IMG/VR virus record: IMGVR_UViG_2718218168_000002
DNA from: a virus
Lineage: Duplodnaviria; Heunggongvirae; Uroviricota; Caudoviricetes
Strand: one strand, 5' to 3'
Length of the DNA stretch: 45,859 bases
Made by a program: the position numbers and the translations under genes. The notes below the pieces were generated by a model. It had not been told where the DNA came from. It saw only the letters and a list, made by a program, of their open reading frames with translations, and ran no database searches. The stretch's first letter is position 1. Every line of letters begins with the position of its first letter. Positions 4,862 to 44,851 of this stretch are shown in pieces.

Positions 4862-5449
4862 TCAGAAAGGAGGGTAATCGTTCTGGCTGTAACCATAATC
4901 ATCTGCATGATTCTGGATTACGTTTTTAGAGCGATTGTCTTTATCTTTGAGACTGGCAACCATGTTGGCGATAGTTTCTGGTTGCTTGCCTTCCGCCTTT
5001 TCTTTAAGGGTTTGACCAGTTTGTGCAATAAACGGGATGCGTATTTCCATCTGGTAGCTGTCTGCGCCAGTCTTTTTGTTTGTGGTTAATACTTTCTGGA
5101 GCACCAACCCGATTTTCTTTCCATGAAATTCAGGTGCAACAAATTTACTGACGGAAATCATATGTTGCGTTAACTGCCCAATCCCGGCACACCCCATCAT
5201 GGCGTGAACGACATTTGCGCCAAATTTGTTTTCCGTTCCGTCATTTTTCTGAACGCAGACGCTAAGATATTGGATTTTACGTCCGTCGTCGGATTCGCCA
5301 GAAAACTCAATAAATTTGGCTCCTTTTTCTGATTGCTTTAGTTCTGCTTCAGTAATGGTAATGATATGAGCGCCAGTTTCGTTAATAAAACCACCTTGCC
5401 CTGCTGTCAGTGCTGCTTCTTCGTTATAAGTAAAAATCACGTTGCTCAT
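4862..5449 (-). CDS. DUF669-like ssDNA-binding protein with SSB-like acidic C-terminal tip
   Basis: 195-aa ORF ending in DYPPF (compare the SSB DDDIPF tip); overlaps the upstream ATPase gene by 4 nt, the usual Sak4/DUF669 pairing. Confidence 0.5.
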   Translation of the reverse strand: MSNVIFTYNEEAALTAGQGGFINETGAHIITITEAELKQSEKGAKFIEFSGESDDGRKIQYLSVCVQKNDGTENKFGANVVHAMMGCAGIGQLTQHMISVSKFVAPEFHGKKIGLVLQKVLTTNKKTGADSYQMEIRIPFIAQTGQTLKEKAEGKQPETIANMVASLKDKDNRSKNVIQNHADDYGYSQNDYPPF

Positions 5450-6433: not shown

Positions 6434-6566
6434 TTTTGGGAACTCCTGGCTGATTAAGTACGTCGATGAGTCGTTTCCATCCGTCACGTAATTTGCGGGT
6501 GATTCGTTCAAGTAAAGATTCGGAAGGGCAGCCAGCAACAGGCCACCCTGCAATGGCATATTGCAT
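6426..6566 (-). CDS. cIII: CIII-like protease inhibitor
   Basis: 46-aa ORF below the track cutoff: MQYAIAGWPVAGCPSESLLERITRKLRDGWKRLIDVLNQPGVPKNG, matching recalled lambda CIII; AAGGAG Shine-Dalgarno upstream. Confidence 0.65.
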   Translation of the reverse strand: MQYAIAGWPVAGCPSESLLERITRKLRDGWKRLIDVLNQPGVPKNG

Positions 6567-6645
6567 GGTGTGCTCCTTATTTATACATAACGAAAACGCC
6601 TCAAGTGAAGCGTTATTGGTATGCGGTAAAGCCGCGCTCAGGCGG

Positions 6646-6907: not shown

Positions 6908-6935
6908 AAAAAAAATCGCCCTCACACTGGAGGGC
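6908..6935 (-). terminator. Rho-independent terminator in the leftward operon (tL-like)
   Basis: Minus strand reads GCCCTC-cagtgt-GAGGGC followed by an 8-nt T run (plus-strand A run 6908-6915). Confidence 0.55.
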
Positions 6936-7071
6936 AAAGAAGATTTCCAATAATCAGAACAAGTCGGCTCCTGTTTGGTTACGAGCGACATTGCTCCGTG
7001 TATTCACTCGTTGGAATGAATACACAGTGCAGTGTTTATTCTGTTGTTTATGCCAAAGATAAAGGCCACTA

Positions 7072-7293: not shown

Positions 7294-7431
7294 TTATTTA
7301 TCCCACCAAGTTCCGTATCTATCTATCCAGTTACACCAATCATCGACACTCCATTTTGTTGTGTCGCATTTTGGCAACTGGCATGAATATCTACCTTCTT
7401 TGTAAAGTCGGCGTTTGACTTTCTTGAGCAT
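7294..7431 (-). CDS. Small Cys-containing protein immediately downstream of N
   Basis: 45-aa ORF MLKKVKRRLYKEGRYSCQLPKCDTTKWSVDDWCNWIDRYGTWWDK, with GAGGTGAG Shine-Dalgarno; below the track length cutoff. Confidence 0.35.
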   Translation of the reverse strand: MLKKVKRRLYKEGRYSCQLPKCDTTKWSVDDWCNWIDRYGTWWDK

Positions 7432-7439
7432 GGCTCACC

Positions 7440-7745
7440 TCAATCGTAATAAGCTGGAATTGATTTTCCGCGTTGCTTCTGGCGGCCTGAGCATGTCACA
7501 CCCATTTCACTGCGTGGCTTGCGGTAGTAAATGCGATTCTGTTTACTCTCGACTTCTTCTGCCTTCTTGCAGCGAAGGCTTCCGAGTGATGCTGCTTTAT
7601 CTGCTCTGACGCAACCAGAGAGCTTTAGCGCAATTTTTCGTGCCAGTCGCTGCTCTTGCATTGCCTGTTCACGTTGAGCCTGTCTGCGTGCTCTGCGGCG
7701 ATTTCTGGCGTTATCGTCAGCCAGATATGTAATGACTACTGTCAT
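7440..7745 (-). CDS. N: N-like transcription antitermination protein
   Basis: 101-aa basic ORF with an arginine-rich N-terminal motif (ARNRRRARRQAQRE) and C-terminus GVTCSGRQKQRGKSIPAYYD resembling lambda N; first gene downstream of pL. Confidence 0.7.
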   Translation of the reverse strand: MTVVITYLADDNARNRRRARRQAQREQAMQEQRLARKIALKLSGCVRADKAASLGSLRCKKAEEVESKQNRIYYRKPRSEMGVTCSGRQKQRGKSIPAYYD

Positions 7746-7852
7746 GTTGACCTCCGATGATTGATTTTGGCGGTGACGCGCCGGGTGCTTATCTTCCGGT
7801 TGCCGTCGTGCAGCTGCACTTCACGTCACCCCAAAGCCAACTACTCTTTGGT

Positions 7853-7894
7853 TCCCGCATTTCGGCGGGACAATCCCATCAATGTTAAAGAGCC
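7853..7894 (-). promoter_or_regulatory. nutL-like site (boxA plus boxB hairpin)
   Basis: Minus strand reads GGCTCTTTAACA (boxA-like), a 12-nt spacer, then hairpin TCCCGC-cgaaat-GCGGGA; the same pair recurs downstream of cro. Confidence 0.55.
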
Positions 7895-7940
7895 TGCCAA
7901 TCTGTTCCGTTTGGCTTCCAGCTTCCTGCTGATGTGTTTA

Positions 7941-8003
7941 GTATCACCGCTAGTGGTATGCGTGTCAACACCGCCAGAGATAATTTATCACCGCAGATGG
8001 TTA
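7941..8003 (-). promoter_or_regulatory. pL promoter with oL1-oL3 operators (lambda-type)
   Basis: Minus strand TTGACA (7964-7969), 17-nt spacer, GATACT (7941-7946); operator-like 17-mers tatcaccgctagtggta, caacaccgccagagata and tatcaccgcagatggtt. Confidence 0.8.
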
Positions 8004-8160: not shown

Positions 8161-8186
8161 AGAAAACCCGGCGCTGAGGCCGGGTT
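8161..8186 (-). terminator. Rho-independent terminator ending the cI operon
   Basis: 8-bp stem aacccggc/gccgggtt with a 6-nt loop, then a T-rich tail on the minus strand; 6 nt after the stop of 8192..9064. Confidence 0.5.
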
Positions 8187-8191
8187 GTATA

Positions 8192-9064
8192 TTATTTAAT
8201 TTCTTTTTCCGGTAAATACATTGTCATTTGAACAGGTTTCTTTCCATAGTGTTGAGCAACTCGACTTCTTAGCTCATGCATGGTGTCGCATGTTTTTGCG
8301 ACCCCAATAACCTCCCAGCACCTTGATACAAGCTGCCTTACACCTAGGTTCTCGGTTAACTGTCTATGCCAGTGAACTCCTGCCGCAGGCTTGTTTTCTT
8401 TAAGATATTTAGCCACATCTTCGTCAAGAGTGTCATAAATTAACTCTATAACTAATTTCCCCCACCATTTGGGCCTTGATTGCAATGGGGTACTCCATCC
8501 TGTCAATCTACCAAATTCTTCCCATAACTCATCAGGAAATGTTTTTTCCCATGCTCTTAGTTCCTCAGCGATGAACGCCCTGAGTTTTACTTGGAGAGCA
8601 TCCTCTGCGCGCTCATACTGATACCCAGTAGCCTCATCAATTAGAGCATCTAACCCAGTCCTGGTTAAACCTGCTGTTAATACAGCACATTTAATTGCTA
8701 TTTCTCGCTGTCTATCTGTCAATGGCGCGCCTTTGTATAGCGCCTGTACATAGCCGCGACAAATCAATTCAAATTGCTCAGTCTTAAGTCCTTGGCTTTT
8801 AAATTGGGTTCCTGGTATGGAAAACTCTATGAGTTCGGCCAGGACTAAGTCTTTGTCTATAAAGCCATTAAGTGAGCTAACGCCAATAAATTTAGCCAGG
8901 TCTCCTGACTCCGCATTGGCAATTGCTTTTACAGTTGCTCGCAAAGCTATAACACGATGTCCAGTGTCAAGCACATAGCAATCAATACTTTCACCACCTA
9001 AGTCGATCTTCCCCTTCCATTTTGCGAATGGGGATGGTAATTGCTGTAAATCATCATGTTCCAT
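8192..9064 (-). CDS. Uncharacterised cargo protein in the rexAB slot of the immunity operon
   Basis: 290-aa product from the internal ATG (MEHDDLQQLPSPFAKWKGK...) 32 nt after the cI stop; the full track ORF 8192..9160 would overlap cI by 65 nt. No similarity to RexA/RexB recalled. Confidence 0.6.
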   Translation of the reverse strand: MEHDDLQQLPSPFAKWKGKIDLGGESIDCYVLDTGHRVIALRATVKAIANAESGDLAKFIGVSSLNGFIDKDLVLAELIEFSIPGTQFKSQGLKTEQFELICRGYVQALYKGAPLTDRQREIAIKCAVLTAGLTRTGLDALIDEATGYQYERAEDALQVKLRAFIAEELRAWEKTFPDELWEEFGRLTGWSTPLQSRPKWWGKLVIELIYDTLDEDVAKYLKENKPAAGVHWHRQLTENLGVRQLVSRCWEVIGVAKTCDTMHELRSRVAQHYGKKPVQMTMYLPEKEIK

Positions 9065-9095
9065 TAATTGAATTACCCTTTTTTGCTGCGTTGAA

Positions 9096-9812
<717 letters not shown>

Positions 9813-9819
9813 TTAAATC

Positions 9820-9885
9820 TATCACCGCAAGGGATAAATATCTAACACCGTGCGTGTTGACTATTTTACCTCTAGCGGTGATAAT
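9820..9885. promoter_or_regulatory. oR3-oR2-oR1 operators with divergent pRM and pR
   Basis: tatcaccgcaagggata, taacaccgtgcgtgttg, tacctctagcggtgata; pR -35 TTGACT (9857-9862) and -10 GATAAT (9880-9885); AGGAGG before cro. Confidence 0.9.
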
Positions 9886-9900
9886 GATTGCATGTACTAA

Positions 9901-10110
<210 letters not shown>

Positions 10111-10117
10111 GTAACAC

Positions 10118-10161
10118 CGCTCTTTAACAGTCATGGTCCTCATTCCCGCCGAAATGCGGGA
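10118..10161 (+). promoter_or_regulatory. nutR-like site (boxA plus boxB hairpin)
   Basis: CGCTCTTTAACA (10118-10129) then hairpin TCCCGC-cgaaat-GCGGGA (10144-10161), identical in boxB to the nutL-like copy. Confidence 0.6.
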
Positions 10162-10219
10162 ATACAACGCGCATAAGTTGATGCGCATAACTTCTTATTT
10201 GTTAAGGAAATACTTACAT

Positions 10220-10516
10220 ATGGTTCGTGCAAACAAACGCAACGAGGCTCTACGAATCGAGAGTGCGTTGCTTAACAAAATCGCAATGCTTGGAACTGAG
10301 AAGACAGCGGAAGCTGTGGGAGTTGATAAGTCGCAGATCAGTAGGTGGAAGAGGGACTGGATTCCAAAGTTCTCAATGCTGCTTGCTGTTCTTGAATGGG
10401 GCGTCGTTGACGACGACATGGCTCGATTGGCACGACAAGTTGCTTCGATTCTCACCAATAAAAAACGCCCGGTGTGCAAGACCGAGCGTTCTGATCAAAT
10501 ACAAATGGAATTTTAA
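10220..10516 (+). CDS. cII: CII transcriptional activator
   Basis: Internal ATG of track ORF 10133..10516 gives MVRANKRNEALRIESALLNKIAMLGTEKTAEAVGVDKSQISRWKRDW..., recalled as lambda CII. Confidence 0.9.
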   Translation: MVRANKRNEALRIESALLNKIAMLGTEKTAEAVGVDKSQISRWKRDWIPKFSMLLAVLEWGVVDDDMARLARQVASILTNKKRPVCKTERSDQIQMEF

Positions 10517-10538: not shown

Positions 10539-10682
10539 ATGCGAAAAACGCAGGAAAATAAACGCGTTAATCACCGAAAAGATGTGCTACGTGACCAGTT
10601 TTATCAGGGGGTTAATCCAGCAATAGCTGTGCCACTGAGAGAAATACTTAACAGGTACAAAACTTCGGAGAAGTCAAAATGA
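10539..10682 (+). CDS. Small basic hypothetical protein upstream of the replication initiator
   Basis: 47-aa ORF MRKTQENKRVNHRKDVLRDQFYQGVNPAIAVPLREILNRYKTSEKSK with GAGG Shine-Dalgarno; its stop overlaps the next start (ATGA). Confidence 0.4.
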   Translation: MRKTQENKRVNHRKDVLRDQFYQGVNPAIAVPLREILNRYKTSEKSK

Positions 10683-11563
10683 GCATGAATCTTATGGCTA
10701 AGGCCATGAATATAAAGGTTGGCAACCCACTGAGAAAACTGGTTCTGATTAAACTTGCCGATAACGCCAATGATAATGGCGAATGCTGGCCTTCATATCA
10801 ACATGTCGCTGACCAGTGTGAGGTGAGCAGATCGACAGTAAAAAGTCACATTAGGGCACTGGAAGAGATGGGGCTTTTGAAAAGGGAATTCAGAAGAAAA
10901 GGAGAGCTTAACCAGTCAAACGTTTTTTATCTGACGCTGGATAATGCACAACAAATCCAACCAGAATCAGGTGGGGCAGGAGCTGCCCGGGGTGGGGCAG
11001 GAGCTGCCCGGGGTGGGGCAGGAGCTGCCCGGGGTGGGGCAGGAGCTGCCCGGGGTGGGGCAGGAGCTGCCCGGGGTGGGGCAGGAGCTGCCCTAGGGGG
11101 TGGGGCAGGAGCTGCCCTAGGGGGTGGGGCAGGAGCTGCCCCCAGAACCTATCACTCTTTTGAACCAGTCAATGAACCTAAAAACATTATGTTCGAACAT
11201 GTCCGAACAGAGTGTGAAAAAACTCCTGACCGTCACGAAGAAACCGACAAGGCATTCGAGGAAATATTCTGGTGTGCAGGAATGCGGAAAGCCGGGAAGA
11301 AAAACGCAGCTTCGGCATTCAGAACACAGTTCAGGGAATGGCGTAAAACTACCAGGGGTACGGCAAGCGAGTTTGCCACGATGCTGGCAGAAGACATCGC
11401 ATGCAGGAATGGTAAGCAGTTCGGATTCGACAGGTTGTTACCATCGAGCTACCTGAACGGTCAACGCTGGAACGACGAGAAGCCAGAAACTATTCAACCA
11501 CAATCCAAACCATCATCCGCAATCACCGTATCGAAAACTGGCTACGTGTTTTTCGACAGGTGA
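10679..11563 (+). CDS. Replication initiator protein (winged-helix HTH N-terminus; O-like role)
   Basis: 294-aa ORF at the lambda O position; N-terminal HTH-like segment (SYQHVADQCEVSRSTVKSHIRALEEMGLLKR); internal Gly/Ala-rich linker encoded by an iteron array. Confidence 0.55.
   Translation: MSMNLMAKAMNIKVGNPLRKLVLIKLADNANDNGECWPSYQHVADQCEVSRSTVKSHIRALEEMGLLKREFRRKGELNQSNVFYLTLDNAQQIQPESGGAGAARGGAGAARGGAGAARGGAGAARGGAGAARGGAGAALGGGAGAALGGGAGAAPRTYHSFEPVNEPKNIMFEHVRTECEKTPDRHEETDKAFEEIFWCAGMRKAGKKNAASAFRTQFREWRKTTRGTASEFATMLAEDIACRNGKQFGFDRLLPSSYLNGQRWNDEKPETIQPQSKPSSAITVSKTGYVFFDR
10970..11143 (+). repeat. Tandem 21-bp iteron array inside the initiator gene (candidate origin)
   Basis: Five exact copies of ggtggggcaggagctgcccgg, then three 24-bp variants; each unit holds inverted arms gggcag/ctgccc. 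Confidence 0.6.
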
Positions 11564-11670: not shown

Positions 11671-13551
11671 ATGAGGCCAAGTGAACTCAGCGACCTGCTT
11701 TGGGCGCAGGTTGACAGGGTGGCTCCGCACCTGTTGCCAAACGGCAAGAAAGAGGGGCATGAGTGGGTTGCCGGTAACGTTAACGGTGACAAGGGAAACA
11801 GCCTTAAGGTCAACCTTAGCGGCAAGAAAAAATGGGCTGATTTCGCTGAGGGAGACGGCGGTGACATGCTTGATTTGTGGATGTCATGTCGTGGAATTAA
11901 TCTGCATCAGGCTATGCAGGAAGCGAAAGCATTTCTCGGTATCAAGGATGACGATCACCATTTCGATGCCAAACGTGAGAAGAAATTCTCCAGACCTGAC
12001 CGCAAGAAAATCGCCCGCTACGTTACCAGAACAGAATCCCATCTTGAGTACCTGCAATCGCGTGGCATATCGCCAGAAATCGTAAAGCGCTACGAGGTTG
12101 TCAGCGGCAAGGTGTGGAATGGAGAGCGAGAACTGGATGCTCTGGTGCTTCCGTACAAACGCGATGGTGAGTTGTTGCAGGTAAAGCGAATCAGCACTGA
12201 GCGCCCGGGCGGGAAGAAAGTCATTATGGCAGAAGGTGATTGCGAACCTTGTCTGTTCGGATGGCAGGCTCTGGACGCTGGCGTGAGGGCGGTTGTACTT
12301 TGCGAAGGCGAAATTGATTGTATGAGCTATGCGCAATACGGCATCTCGGCGTTATCCGTACCGTTTGGTGGCGGGAAAGGCGCTAAGCAGCAGTGGATTG
12401 AGTTTGAGTATCACAACCTCGACAGGTTTGAGGAAATATTCATCTCGATGGACGTTGATGATGTTGGTCGTGAAGCCGCAAGGGAAATCGCAAGCCGACT
12501 CGGTGAACATCGTTGCCGTCTTGTTACTCTGCCGTACAAAGACATCAACGAATGCCTGATGAACGGTGTTACCGAGGATGAAATCTGGCAGTACATCGGC
12601 ACGGCATCCTACTTCGATCCTGAAGAACTCTACAGCGCGCGAGAGTTTTACCAGGACACTATCAACGCTTTCTACGGCAAGCAGCAGTATCTGTTTAATC
12701 CACCGTGGGAATCTCTGGCAGATAAATTCCAGTTCCGTGAGGCCGAGTTGACGCTGGTCAATGGTGTGAACGGTCACGGAAAAACGGAGGTTGTCGGGCA
12801 TATGGCACTTGAGGCAATGCGTCAGGGTGTGAAGACGTGCATCGCGTCACTTGAGCTGAAGCCTGGTATTCTCCTTAAGCGCCTTACCCGTCAGGCGACG
12901 TGCTGCAAGATGCCGCCAGTGCTGGAAATTGACTCTGCATTTAAATTTTATGACGAAAGACTTTGGGTGTTTGGCCTGACCGGAACGGCGAAAGCCGACA
13001 GGCTGATCGAAATATTCGACTACGCTCGCCGCCGATACGGGATCCAGTTATTCATCATCGACAGCCTGATGAAATGTGGCATAGGCGACGATGACTATAA
13101 CGGGCAGAAGGCGTTTGTTGACTCGATTTGCGACTTCAAAAACAAAACAAACTCCCACGTCATTCTCGTTACTCACTCGCGAAAAGGAGACAGCGAAGAA
13201 AAACCAACCGGGAAAATGGACGTAAAAGGCTCTGGAGCGATAACAGACCTGACAGACAACCTTTTCATCATCTGGCGTAACAAGGCTCGCGAGAGAGCGT
13301 TACAGAGAGTTCAGAGTGGTGAAAAGATGTCTGAGAAGGACGAACAGCTACTGGCATCTCCGGCATCTGTTTTGATGCTTGAAAAACAACGTAACGGAGA
13401 AGGTTGGGAAGGTGGTGTCCCGTTGTTCCTTGACGAGCAATCGCACCAGTTCCTGCAACTTGAATCAGGATCGCCATATAGCTACATCGCCAATATGCCG
13501 AAATCGGAATATGACGAGGCGTGGCGACAGGAAAACGTGACGGAGTATTAA
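11671..13551 (+). CDS. Bifunctional DNA primase/helicase (TOPRIM plus DnaB/SF4-like ATPase)
   Basis: 626-aa ORF; TOPRIM-like acidic motifs (VVLCEGEIDCMSYAQ, ISMDVDDVGREAA) and a C-terminal Walker A (NGVNGHGKTE) with a RecA-like core (FIIDSLMK); GAGGGA before the ATG. Confidence 0.7.
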   Translation: MRPSELSDLLWAQVDRVAPHLLPNGKKEGHEWVAGNVNGDKGNSLKVNLSGKKKWADFAEGDGGDMLDLWMSCRGINLHQAMQEAKAFLGIKDDDHHFDAKREKKFSRPDRKKIARYVTRTESHLEYLQSRGISPEIVKRYEVVSGKVWNGERELDALVLPYKRDGELLQVKRISTERPGGKKVIMAEGDCEPCLFGWQALDAGVRAVVLCEGEIDCMSYAQYGISALSVPFGGGKGAKQQWIEFEYHNLDRFEEIFISMDVDDVGREAAREIASRLGEHRCRLVTLPYKDINECLMNGVTEDEIWQYIGTASYFDPEELYSAREFYQDTINAFYGKQQYLFNPPWESLADKFQFREAELTLVNGVNGHGKTEVVGHMALEAMRQGVKTCIASLELKPGILLKRLTRQATCCKMPPVLEIDSAFKFYDERLWVFGLTGTAKADRLIEIFDYARRRYGIQLFIIDSLMKCGIGDDDYNGQKAFVDSICDFKNKTNSHVILVTHSRKGDSEEKPTGKMDVKGSGAITDLTDNLFIIWRNKARERALQRVQSGEKMSEKDEQLLASPASVLMLEKQRNGEGWEGGVPLFLDEQSHQFLQLESGSPYSYIANMPKSEYDEAWRQENVTEY

Positions 13552-16495: not shown

Positions 16496-16586
16496 TTGAC
16501 GCGATGATTTATTCGGGGCTATATTCCCAGCACGCCAGCAAAATCTGGCGTCGGGATTGGAACCCCGGATAGAGACCGCGACAAAC

Positions 16587-16610
16587 ACACGCCGCGAGCG
16601 TGTTTTTTAT
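16587..16610 (+). terminator. Rho-independent terminator upstream of the ORF6N moron
   Basis: Stem acacgc/gcgtgt with loop cgcga, followed by tttttatt. Confidence 0.5.
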
Positions 16611-16769
16611 TGTCGTATGCACGCGCACATCTGAATTATGGTGGGGCGCATGGGGGAGCTGAAAAGCTCGCCGGTCGGTTTCCCGGTAGTTCCAACCCTG
16701 TGCGTCTCACCACCCGATGATTGGAACCTGACGGTGGTGATAGTTTAGAAACCACCAGAGGGCGTCATT

Positions 16770-44775: not shown

Positions 44776-44851
44776 ATGGTGTCCCCTGCAGGAATCGAAC
44801 CTGCAATTAGCCCTTAGGAGGGGCTCGTTATATCCATTTAACTAAGAGGAC
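44776..44851 (-). tRNA. argW: tRNA-Arg (anticodon CCU)
   Basis: Minus-strand cloverleaf: acceptor GTCCTCT/AGGGGAC, D stem GTTA/TAAC, anticodon stem AGCCC/GGGCT with loop CTCCTAA, T arm GCAGG-TTCGATT-CCTGC, discriminator A, CCA. Confidence 0.9.

Follow-up and report, generated by a model that had tools for sequence, protein, structure and literature searches.

A lambda-type immunity region flanked on both sides by HK620-type nut sites in a lambdoid prophage

Among lambdoid phages, the arginine-rich motif (ARM) of N occurs in several types that are accompanied by a boxB of their own. The lambda ARM is found with GCCCTGAA(A/G)AAGGGC, the P22 ARM with GCGCTGACAAAGCGC at nutL and ACCGCCGACAACGCGGT at nutR, the phage 21 ARM with boxB hairpins carrying a CTAACC loop, and the H-19B-type ARM, as in mEp234, with GCGCTGACAAAGCGC and a long spacer. 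H-19B itself has an N of 127 aa whose ARM is RSRRRER (residues 12-18; PMC3526286). A further type has been on record since the genome of HK620 was deposited; GenBank entry AF335538 labels the relevant stretches "nutL; putative N-utilization leftward" and "nutR" and places tR1 directly behind the latter, and the same type is annotated in HK630, N7, and CUS-3, so that the N/nut type described below is not new. Lambda immunity joined to a non-lambda N/nut type has likewise already been deposited, e.g. for mEp234 (EF120460); the match in the HK106 record (EF120461) is identical to that in mEp234, and both are immunity-region records of the study by Degnan et al. (2007). We found no paper printing the HK620-type boxB sequence itself in the searchable literature, and a literature search combining HK620 with boxB or nutR, and covering orthogonal N peptides, returned no characterization of this ARM-boxB pair, which appears to be biochemically uncharacterized. 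Here we compare these systems with a 45.9-kb stretch of phage DNA (45,859 nt, referred to as the window) that is a real but ordinary, and uncommon, combination of lambdoid modules. The features discussed are collected in Table 1.

Table 1. Position of the early control elements in the window
Feature	Position	Strand	Basis or remark
cIII thermoregulator	6521-6579		Rfam Lambda_thermo; beyond the terminator candidate, further downstream of N
Intrinsic terminator-like hairpin and T-run, 3' of N in the pL operon	6916-6937	-	tL1-like candidate antitermination target
N antiterminator gene, 101 aa, intact ORF	7440-7745	-	GGAGG ribosome-binding site 5 nt upstream
N ARM NARNRRRARRQAQREQ, codons 12-27	7665-7712	-	Translation
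nutL boxB hairpin UCCCGC-CGAAAU-GCGGGA	7853-7870	-	Exact match and fold; same as annotated HK620 nutL
nutL spacer, 12 nt, TTGATGGGATTG	7871-7882	-	Read from sequence
nutL boxA GCTCTTTAACA, rrn consensus type	7883-7893	-	Exact match
Left junction, 11 nt, CATCAGCAGGA	7924-7934	-	Common to lambda, HK620, and phage 21; start of the pL transcript
pL promoter, TTGACA, 17 nt, GATACT	7940-7968	-	Overlaps oL1 and oL2
oL1 (one G-to-A)	7942-7958	-	Lambda-type operator
oL2	7966-7982	-	Lambda-type operator
oL3	7986-8002	-	Lambda-type operator
cI repressor	9096-9809	-	232/237 identical to lambda cI
oR3	9820-9836	+	Lambda-type operator
oR2	9843-9859	+	Lambda-type operator
pR promoter, TTGACT, 17 nt, GATAAT	9857-9885	+	
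oR1 (one G-to-A)	9867-9883	+	Lambda-type operator
cro	9910-10110	+	65/66 identical to lambda Cro
HK620-type nutR cassette, ~92 bp	~10111-10202	+	100% identical to HK620; between lambda-type cro and lambda-type cII
nutR boxA GCTCTTTAACA	10119-10129	+	Exact match
nutR spacer, 14 nt, GTCATGGTCCTCAT	10130-10143	+	Read from sequence
nutR boxB hairpin, same 18 nt as nutL	10144-10161	+	Flanking A-U pairs extend the stem to 8 bp
Right junction, 20 nt, TAAGGAAATACTTACATATG (cII ribosome-binding site and start)	10203-10222	+	Common to lambda, HK620, and the window
cII, lambda-type	10220-10516	+	First 75 residues identical to lambda cII; diverges near the C-terminus

The center of the locus is that of lambda, as the initial annotation had claimed for the operators, cI, and cro. 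Judged by sequence, the repressor, Cro, and six operators in the oL/oR arrangement place the window in the lambda immunity group. Four operators (oR2, oR3, oL2, and oL3) are identical to those of lambda, and oR1 and oL1 each carry one substitution, the same G-to-A when compared with laboratory lambda (TACCTCTAGCGGTGATA and TACCACTAGCGGTGATA). CL707, mEp234, and mEp332 have the oR1 change as well, mEp332 and SfI have the oL1 change, and the close relatives WS4437A-1 (L005), L063, and L075 have both. The slot downstream of cI that is held by rexA/rexB in lambda is filled in the window by a P63C-domain gene at 8192-9103 on the minus strand (Pfam PF10546, E = 2.3e-22; phrog_2384), starting at 9103 by its PGAP homolog or at an ATG at 9064 and followed by a bidirectional terminator-like hairpin at 8165-8186. 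PADLOC gave no match for this gene, and in other lambda-immunity phages the same slot holds hicAB, BstA-C-domain, ParA-like, or NYN-domain genes; the P63C-domain gene is a candidate for a defense or exclusion gene expressed in the lysogen. On the minus strand at 10462-10492, opposite the 3' end of cII, lies a strong terminator-like hairpin whose location corresponds to that of the terminator of oop RNA in lambda.

The nut sites flanking this region, on the other hand, are not those of lambda. The 18-nt boxB TCCCGCCGAAATGCGGGA (TCCCGC-CGAAAT-GCGGGA) occurs exactly twice in the window, nutL following pL and nutR following cro, each in the sense of its transcript (pL and pR, respectively). Allowing up to 3 mismatches brought no third match in the window, 0 of 100 shuffles gave two or more matches, and the lambda boxB (GCCCTGAARAAGGGC) was absent from the window even with up to 2 mismatches allowed, all of which agrees with the initial proposal that both sites share this hairpin in place of the lambda one. 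The coordinates and sequences then given for nutL, nutR, and N were likewise reproduced throughout. When folded alone, the nutL boxB forms a 6-bp stem with a 6-nt loop (-10.5 kcal/mol, z-score -3.8) and the nutR boxB an 8-bp stem with a 6-nt loop (-11.7 kcal/mol, z-score -3.3). The boxA had been called rrn-like and is of the rrn consensus type, because the same 11-mer sits in the rrnA leader of E. coli K-12. In a scan of the whole window at the Rfam gathering threshold, no family matched at nutL or nutR, the only matches being Lambda_thermo, isrK, C4 and its target family c4-a1b1, and one tRNA.

That such hairpins might be something other than N-binding sites, i.e. intrinsic terminators, Rho-loading sites, or recombination scars flanking the immunity region, could be argued from the fact that they are only G+C-rich hairpins in intergenic DNA, with z-scores that become weak (-0.5 and -1.5) when they are folded in their 56-59-nt context. 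However, neither hairpin is followed by a T-run or called by the terminator scan, whereas a perfect consensus boxA stands 12-14 nt before each, and both are placed and oriented exactly as nutL and nutR are in lambda, phage 21, and HK620. Their presence moreover follows the ARM type of N and not the immunity type (see below), and this explanation is very unlikely.

The protein expected to read these sites is encoded by an intact gene 3' of nutL. Its N-terminus is MTVVITYLADDNARNRRRARRQAQREQAMQ, and its ARM (NARNRRRARRQAQREQ versus DAQTRRRERRAEKQAQW in lambda) bears out the earlier statement that this N departs from lambda N at its arginine-rich N-terminus. With NARNRRRARR at residues 12-21, it is a small basic protein with an N-terminal ARM, and it is assigned to phrog_271 (anti-termination protein N-like) with an E-value of 5.4e-36. 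Residues 62-98 align to residues 74-109 of lambda N in the antitermination complex of PDB 6GOV (E = 4.3e-6), i.e. a C-terminal region of 37 residues is homologous to the RNA polymerase-binding part of lambda N. The Pfam N_peptide score falls below threshold (16.9 versus 27.9 bits) and the PGAP label of the homolog is "hypothetical protein," so that N of the HK620 type escapes current automatic annotation. A tblastn search of the phage collection with residues 1-45 gave no match, probably owing to the low-complexity filter acting on the arginine-rich query. Comparison with three other loci (L002, L004, and L090) shows that N is itself a mosaic of three parts, each common to a different set of phages: residues 1-32, with the ARM, are of the HK620 type; residues 33-64 are common to HK620 and phage 21; and residues 65-101, the predicted RNA polymerase-binding region, match phage 21 at first and are then of the SfI/lambda type.

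The closest counterpart of the N/nut module is that of HK620. A megablast search with positions 7400-8000 returned HK620, HK630, N7, HF4s, CUS-3, ECP1, and others at 96-99% identity, and the same module is present in HK140 and mEpX2. Carriers such as HK620, HK630, N7, HF4s, and ECP1 are in the phage genome collection, several of them with a named isolation host. The 65-nt strings around nutL and nutR are base-for-base the same as the window in both HK620 and HK630, and those of N7 differ only in a few bases upstream of the nutR boxA. The pL leader of HK620 is also the same, as are residues 1-64 of its N except for one residue. Beyond this module the two phages part company. HK620 has its own cI, cro, and operators in place of the lambda-type immunity of the window, its cII is annotated as similar to P22 c1 whereas that of the window is lambda-type, and its N ends in a P22/H-19B-type C-terminus (...YAAGYRKSKQLTAR) as opposed to the lambda/SfI-type C-terminus of the window (...CSGRQKQRGKSIPAYYD). 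Taken by type, the window combines the HK620 ARM (DDNARNRRRARRQAQREQ) with boxB TCCCGCCGAAATGCGGGA at both nut sites. The lambda combination of boxB GCCCUGAA(A/G)AAGGGC with ARM MDAQTRRRERRAEKQAQW is not found in it, and of the phage 21 type, defined by the CUAACC hexaloop and ARM GTAKSRYKARRAELIAERR, it has only the leader, boxA, and the central N region.

The association of this ARM with this boxB was followed across relatives. A scan of IMG/VR with N gave 80 loci, 70 of them with this ARM, and HK620, HK630, and N7 brought the number to 73. The ARM is near-invariant in these 73 relatives, and in all 71 loci that have this ARM and enough flank (the two others are a truncated and a rearranged contig) both nutL and nutR have the identical boxB, with one copy on the N strand and the other on the opposite strand 1.3-3.0 kb away. 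The DNA lying between the two nut sites falls into at least seven unrelated classes representing different immunity regions, including 36 HK620-like loci, 27 N7-like loci, and 4 of lambda type, the window among them. Conservation of the hairpin with the N type in relatives, which had been suggested as a check on the co-variation of protein and RNA site, is therefore observed at both nut positions and across different immunity regions. Because the boxB sequence is invariant in all relatives, there is no stem covariation within the HK620 type that could independently prove the RNA structure. Approximately 30 relatives looked at first like counter-examples, having no boxB upstream of N, but the exact boxB lies 335-590 nt upstream in these, extra DNA having been inserted between it and N.

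In 22 relatives (e.g. L007 and L011, at ~4870-4910), nutL and N are separated by an insert of ~200 bp in which a second boxA-like TGCTCTT immediately precedes a hairpin. This hairpin has the form CCCCGTC-TAATT-GGCGGGG or GCCCCTC-AGTTC-GAGGGGC, with compensatory changes between the two stem versions; the insert could be an extra nut-like site or a regulatory structure of the N leader.

The joints between the lambda-type and HK620-type parts were placed by three-way alignment of the window, lambda, and HK620. On the left, identity to lambda runs through oL3-oL1 and pL into CATCAGCAGGA, at the start of the pL transcript (+1 at ~7933, placed by homology to lambda), and everything leftward from there is HK620. 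On the right, identity to lambda extends through cro to a few bases before its stop codon and gives way to the HK620-type cassette, which holds boxA, spacer, boxB, and the stretch homologous to tR1 (annotated there in HK620), before lambda identity resumes at TAAGGAAATACTTACATATG with cII. The lambda immunity block therefore has an HK620-type nut site at either end. Both joints fall at sequences shared between the parents, and together with the pairwise change seen in phage 21 (see below) this supports the earlier idea that protein and RNA site have co-varied through a module swap at the N/nut level.

It could be argued that the swap left specificity unchanged, lambda N or another characterized N recognizing this boxB, and that the arrangement reflects neutral shuffling. 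The ARM NARNRRRARRQAQREQ does line up with lambda DAQTRRRERRAEKQAQ at several positions and resembles the lambda RRRxRR core, and the CGAAAU loop contains GAAA, i.e. a GNRA-type tetraloop flanked by C and U. However, stem, closing pair, and loop size (6 versus 5 nt) all differ from the lambda GCCCU-GAAAA-AGGGC, and the window N has Ala at the position of lambda Trp18. Strict co-inheritance of ARM and boxB in 71 loci also speaks against neutral shuffling, as does the nutR patch, for which it is difficult to account without selection for a matching nutR, and we regard unchanged specificity as unlikely. Since it is the ARM-boxB pair that determines N specificity, a viable phage needs a matching boxB on both sides of its immunity region, and the need for N to match both nut sites accounts for the retention of an HK620-type patch of ~92 bp between lambda cro and cII. 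The patch, together with the matching nutL and ARM, illustrates selection that keeps the ARM and both boxB elements matched while their surroundings recombine at short linkers.

Very probably, then, the window carries a working lambdoid early-antitermination module of HK620 specificity, which homologous recombination at short conserved linkers has brought to both sides of a lambda-type immunity region. If it operates as the modules of lambda, P22, and phage 21 do, each early transcript, from pL and from pR, would carry a nut site made up of a boxA of rrn consensus, a spacer of 12-14 nt, and a boxB hairpin. The N-terminal ARM of the 101-aa N would bind boxB on the nascent transcripts, the consensus boxA would recruit NusB and NusE, and the central and C-terminal parts of N would contact NusA and RNA polymerase. 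Leftward, the modified polymerase would pass the terminator candidate 3' of N and reach cIII and the recombination genes. Rightward, it would read through the tR1-like, probably Rho-dependent region right after nutR toward the replication genes; the terminator scan found no rightward intrinsic terminator between nutR and 11800, so that the rightward target rests on analogy with the Rho-dependent tR1. RNA binding, use of Nus factors, and read-through are predicted here by analogy. More tentatively, the HK620-type ARM-boxB pair may represent a structurally distinct mode, in which CGAAAU would form a GAAA tetraloop, with a C-U mismatch as its closing pair, on a phage 21-like stem, orthogonal to the lambda, P22, and phage 21 pairs; if true, it would provide a fourth independent peptide-RNA tethering pair.

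The distribution of the mosaic also bears on whether it is a living combination. A 161-nt probe across the nutL/oL junction was covered to at least 80%, the threshold for counting a genome, in 21 of 5,426 complete E. coli genomes. Four of the 21 include the HK620-type boxB (LR-60, Br_190_kylling, GPEC349-628, and WS4437A-1), and the other 17 share only boxA and the leader and have another boxB, which in the one examined (PEC240) is of the P22 type. None of 50,697 phage records contained the nutL/oL junction. Over 7.4-12.9 kb that take in the nutL/oL junction and the oL1 variant, two IMG/VR contigs (L063 and L075) and WS4437A-1 (L005; NZ_CP035822) share 98-99% identity with the window. Its matches to chromosomal prophages, with the PGAP label of its N homolog, would fit a defective prophage in which the mismatch between N/nut and the lambda parts is left over from decay and has no functional consequence. 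However, N, cI, cro, and cII are all intact ORFs, both nut sites match the resident N, and the same mosaic is conserved at 98-99% in at least four complete E. coli genomes and two IMG/VR contigs; decay is therefore a distinctly improbable explanation, and a working module of HK620 specificity remains our preferred reading. When the boxA-spacer-boxB pattern was sought in one genome per species, it occurred in two places only, an Escherichia sp. contig and a short contig binned as Segatella copri, from which the HK620-type nut appears confined to Escherichia phages. The latter (L094, JAJXBQ010000254.1) is a 4.2-kb contig of a Segatella copri MAG with both HK620-type nut sites and is probably a mis-binned Escherichia phage fragment.

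Elsewhere in the prophage, the place of lambda O and P is taken by a gene for a 294-aa replication protein (10679-11563) followed by a 626-aa toprim/primase-helicase gene (11671-13551). Inside the former lies a 21-bp tandem repeat of 7.9 copies (GGTGGGGCAGGAGCTGCCCGG; 10970-11141, plus strand), which encodes a GGAGAAR peptide repeat and probably represents origin iterons. The Rfam matches to isrK and to the C4 antisense RNA with its a1/b1 targets fall at 16519-16717 on the plus strand, pointing to a P1/P7-type antisense-controlled region, possibly for antirepressor control. Near the end of the window is a tRNA gene (44780-44851, minus strand) that may be phage-borne or may mark the attachment site.

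Phage 21 has almost the same first ~55 nt of the pL transcript (leader, boxA, and start of the spacer) and almost the same N codons ~33-64 (central region LARKIALKLSGCVRADKAASLGSLRCKKAEE), and the two differ most sharply in boxB and in the ARM codons. The architecture of boxB is similar, with a 6-7-bp stem and a 6-nt loop, but the loop is CUAACC in phage 21 and CGAAAU in the window, the stems differ, and the ARM is GTAKSRYKARRAELIAERR in the former and NARNRRRARRQAQREQ in the latter. Because these differences stand out from a shared background, protein motif and RNA site co-vary as a pair. Lambda has the same layout as the window, with pL-nutL-N to one side and pR-cro-nutR-cII to the other, the same type of immunity region, and an N whose C-terminal region, the part seen in 6GOV, is homologous. 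On the other hand, its boxB (GCCCUGAARAAGGGC) has a pentaloop where the window has a hexaloop, its boxA (CGCUCUUA) falls short of the full consensus found in the window, its ARM differs, and the N residues that connect the ARM with the C-terminal region are unrelated. A match to the H-19B type of N was considered, given that a Stx1a-converting phage carries the window-type N, and was ruled out by the RSRRRER motif of H-19B and by the different ARM and boxB of mEp234. In mEp234, a wild phage with lambda immunity, N is of the H-19B type and the annotated nut sites match it, where the window has the HK620 type, and PEC240 (L091) combines lambda immunity with a P22-type N (ARM GNAKTRRHERRRKLAIERD) and P22-type boxB at nutL and nutR, using the same pL-leader/boxA linker as the window. 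What mEp234 and PEC240 have in common with the window is a core of lambda cI, cro, and operators with nut sites to either side that fit a non-lambda N.
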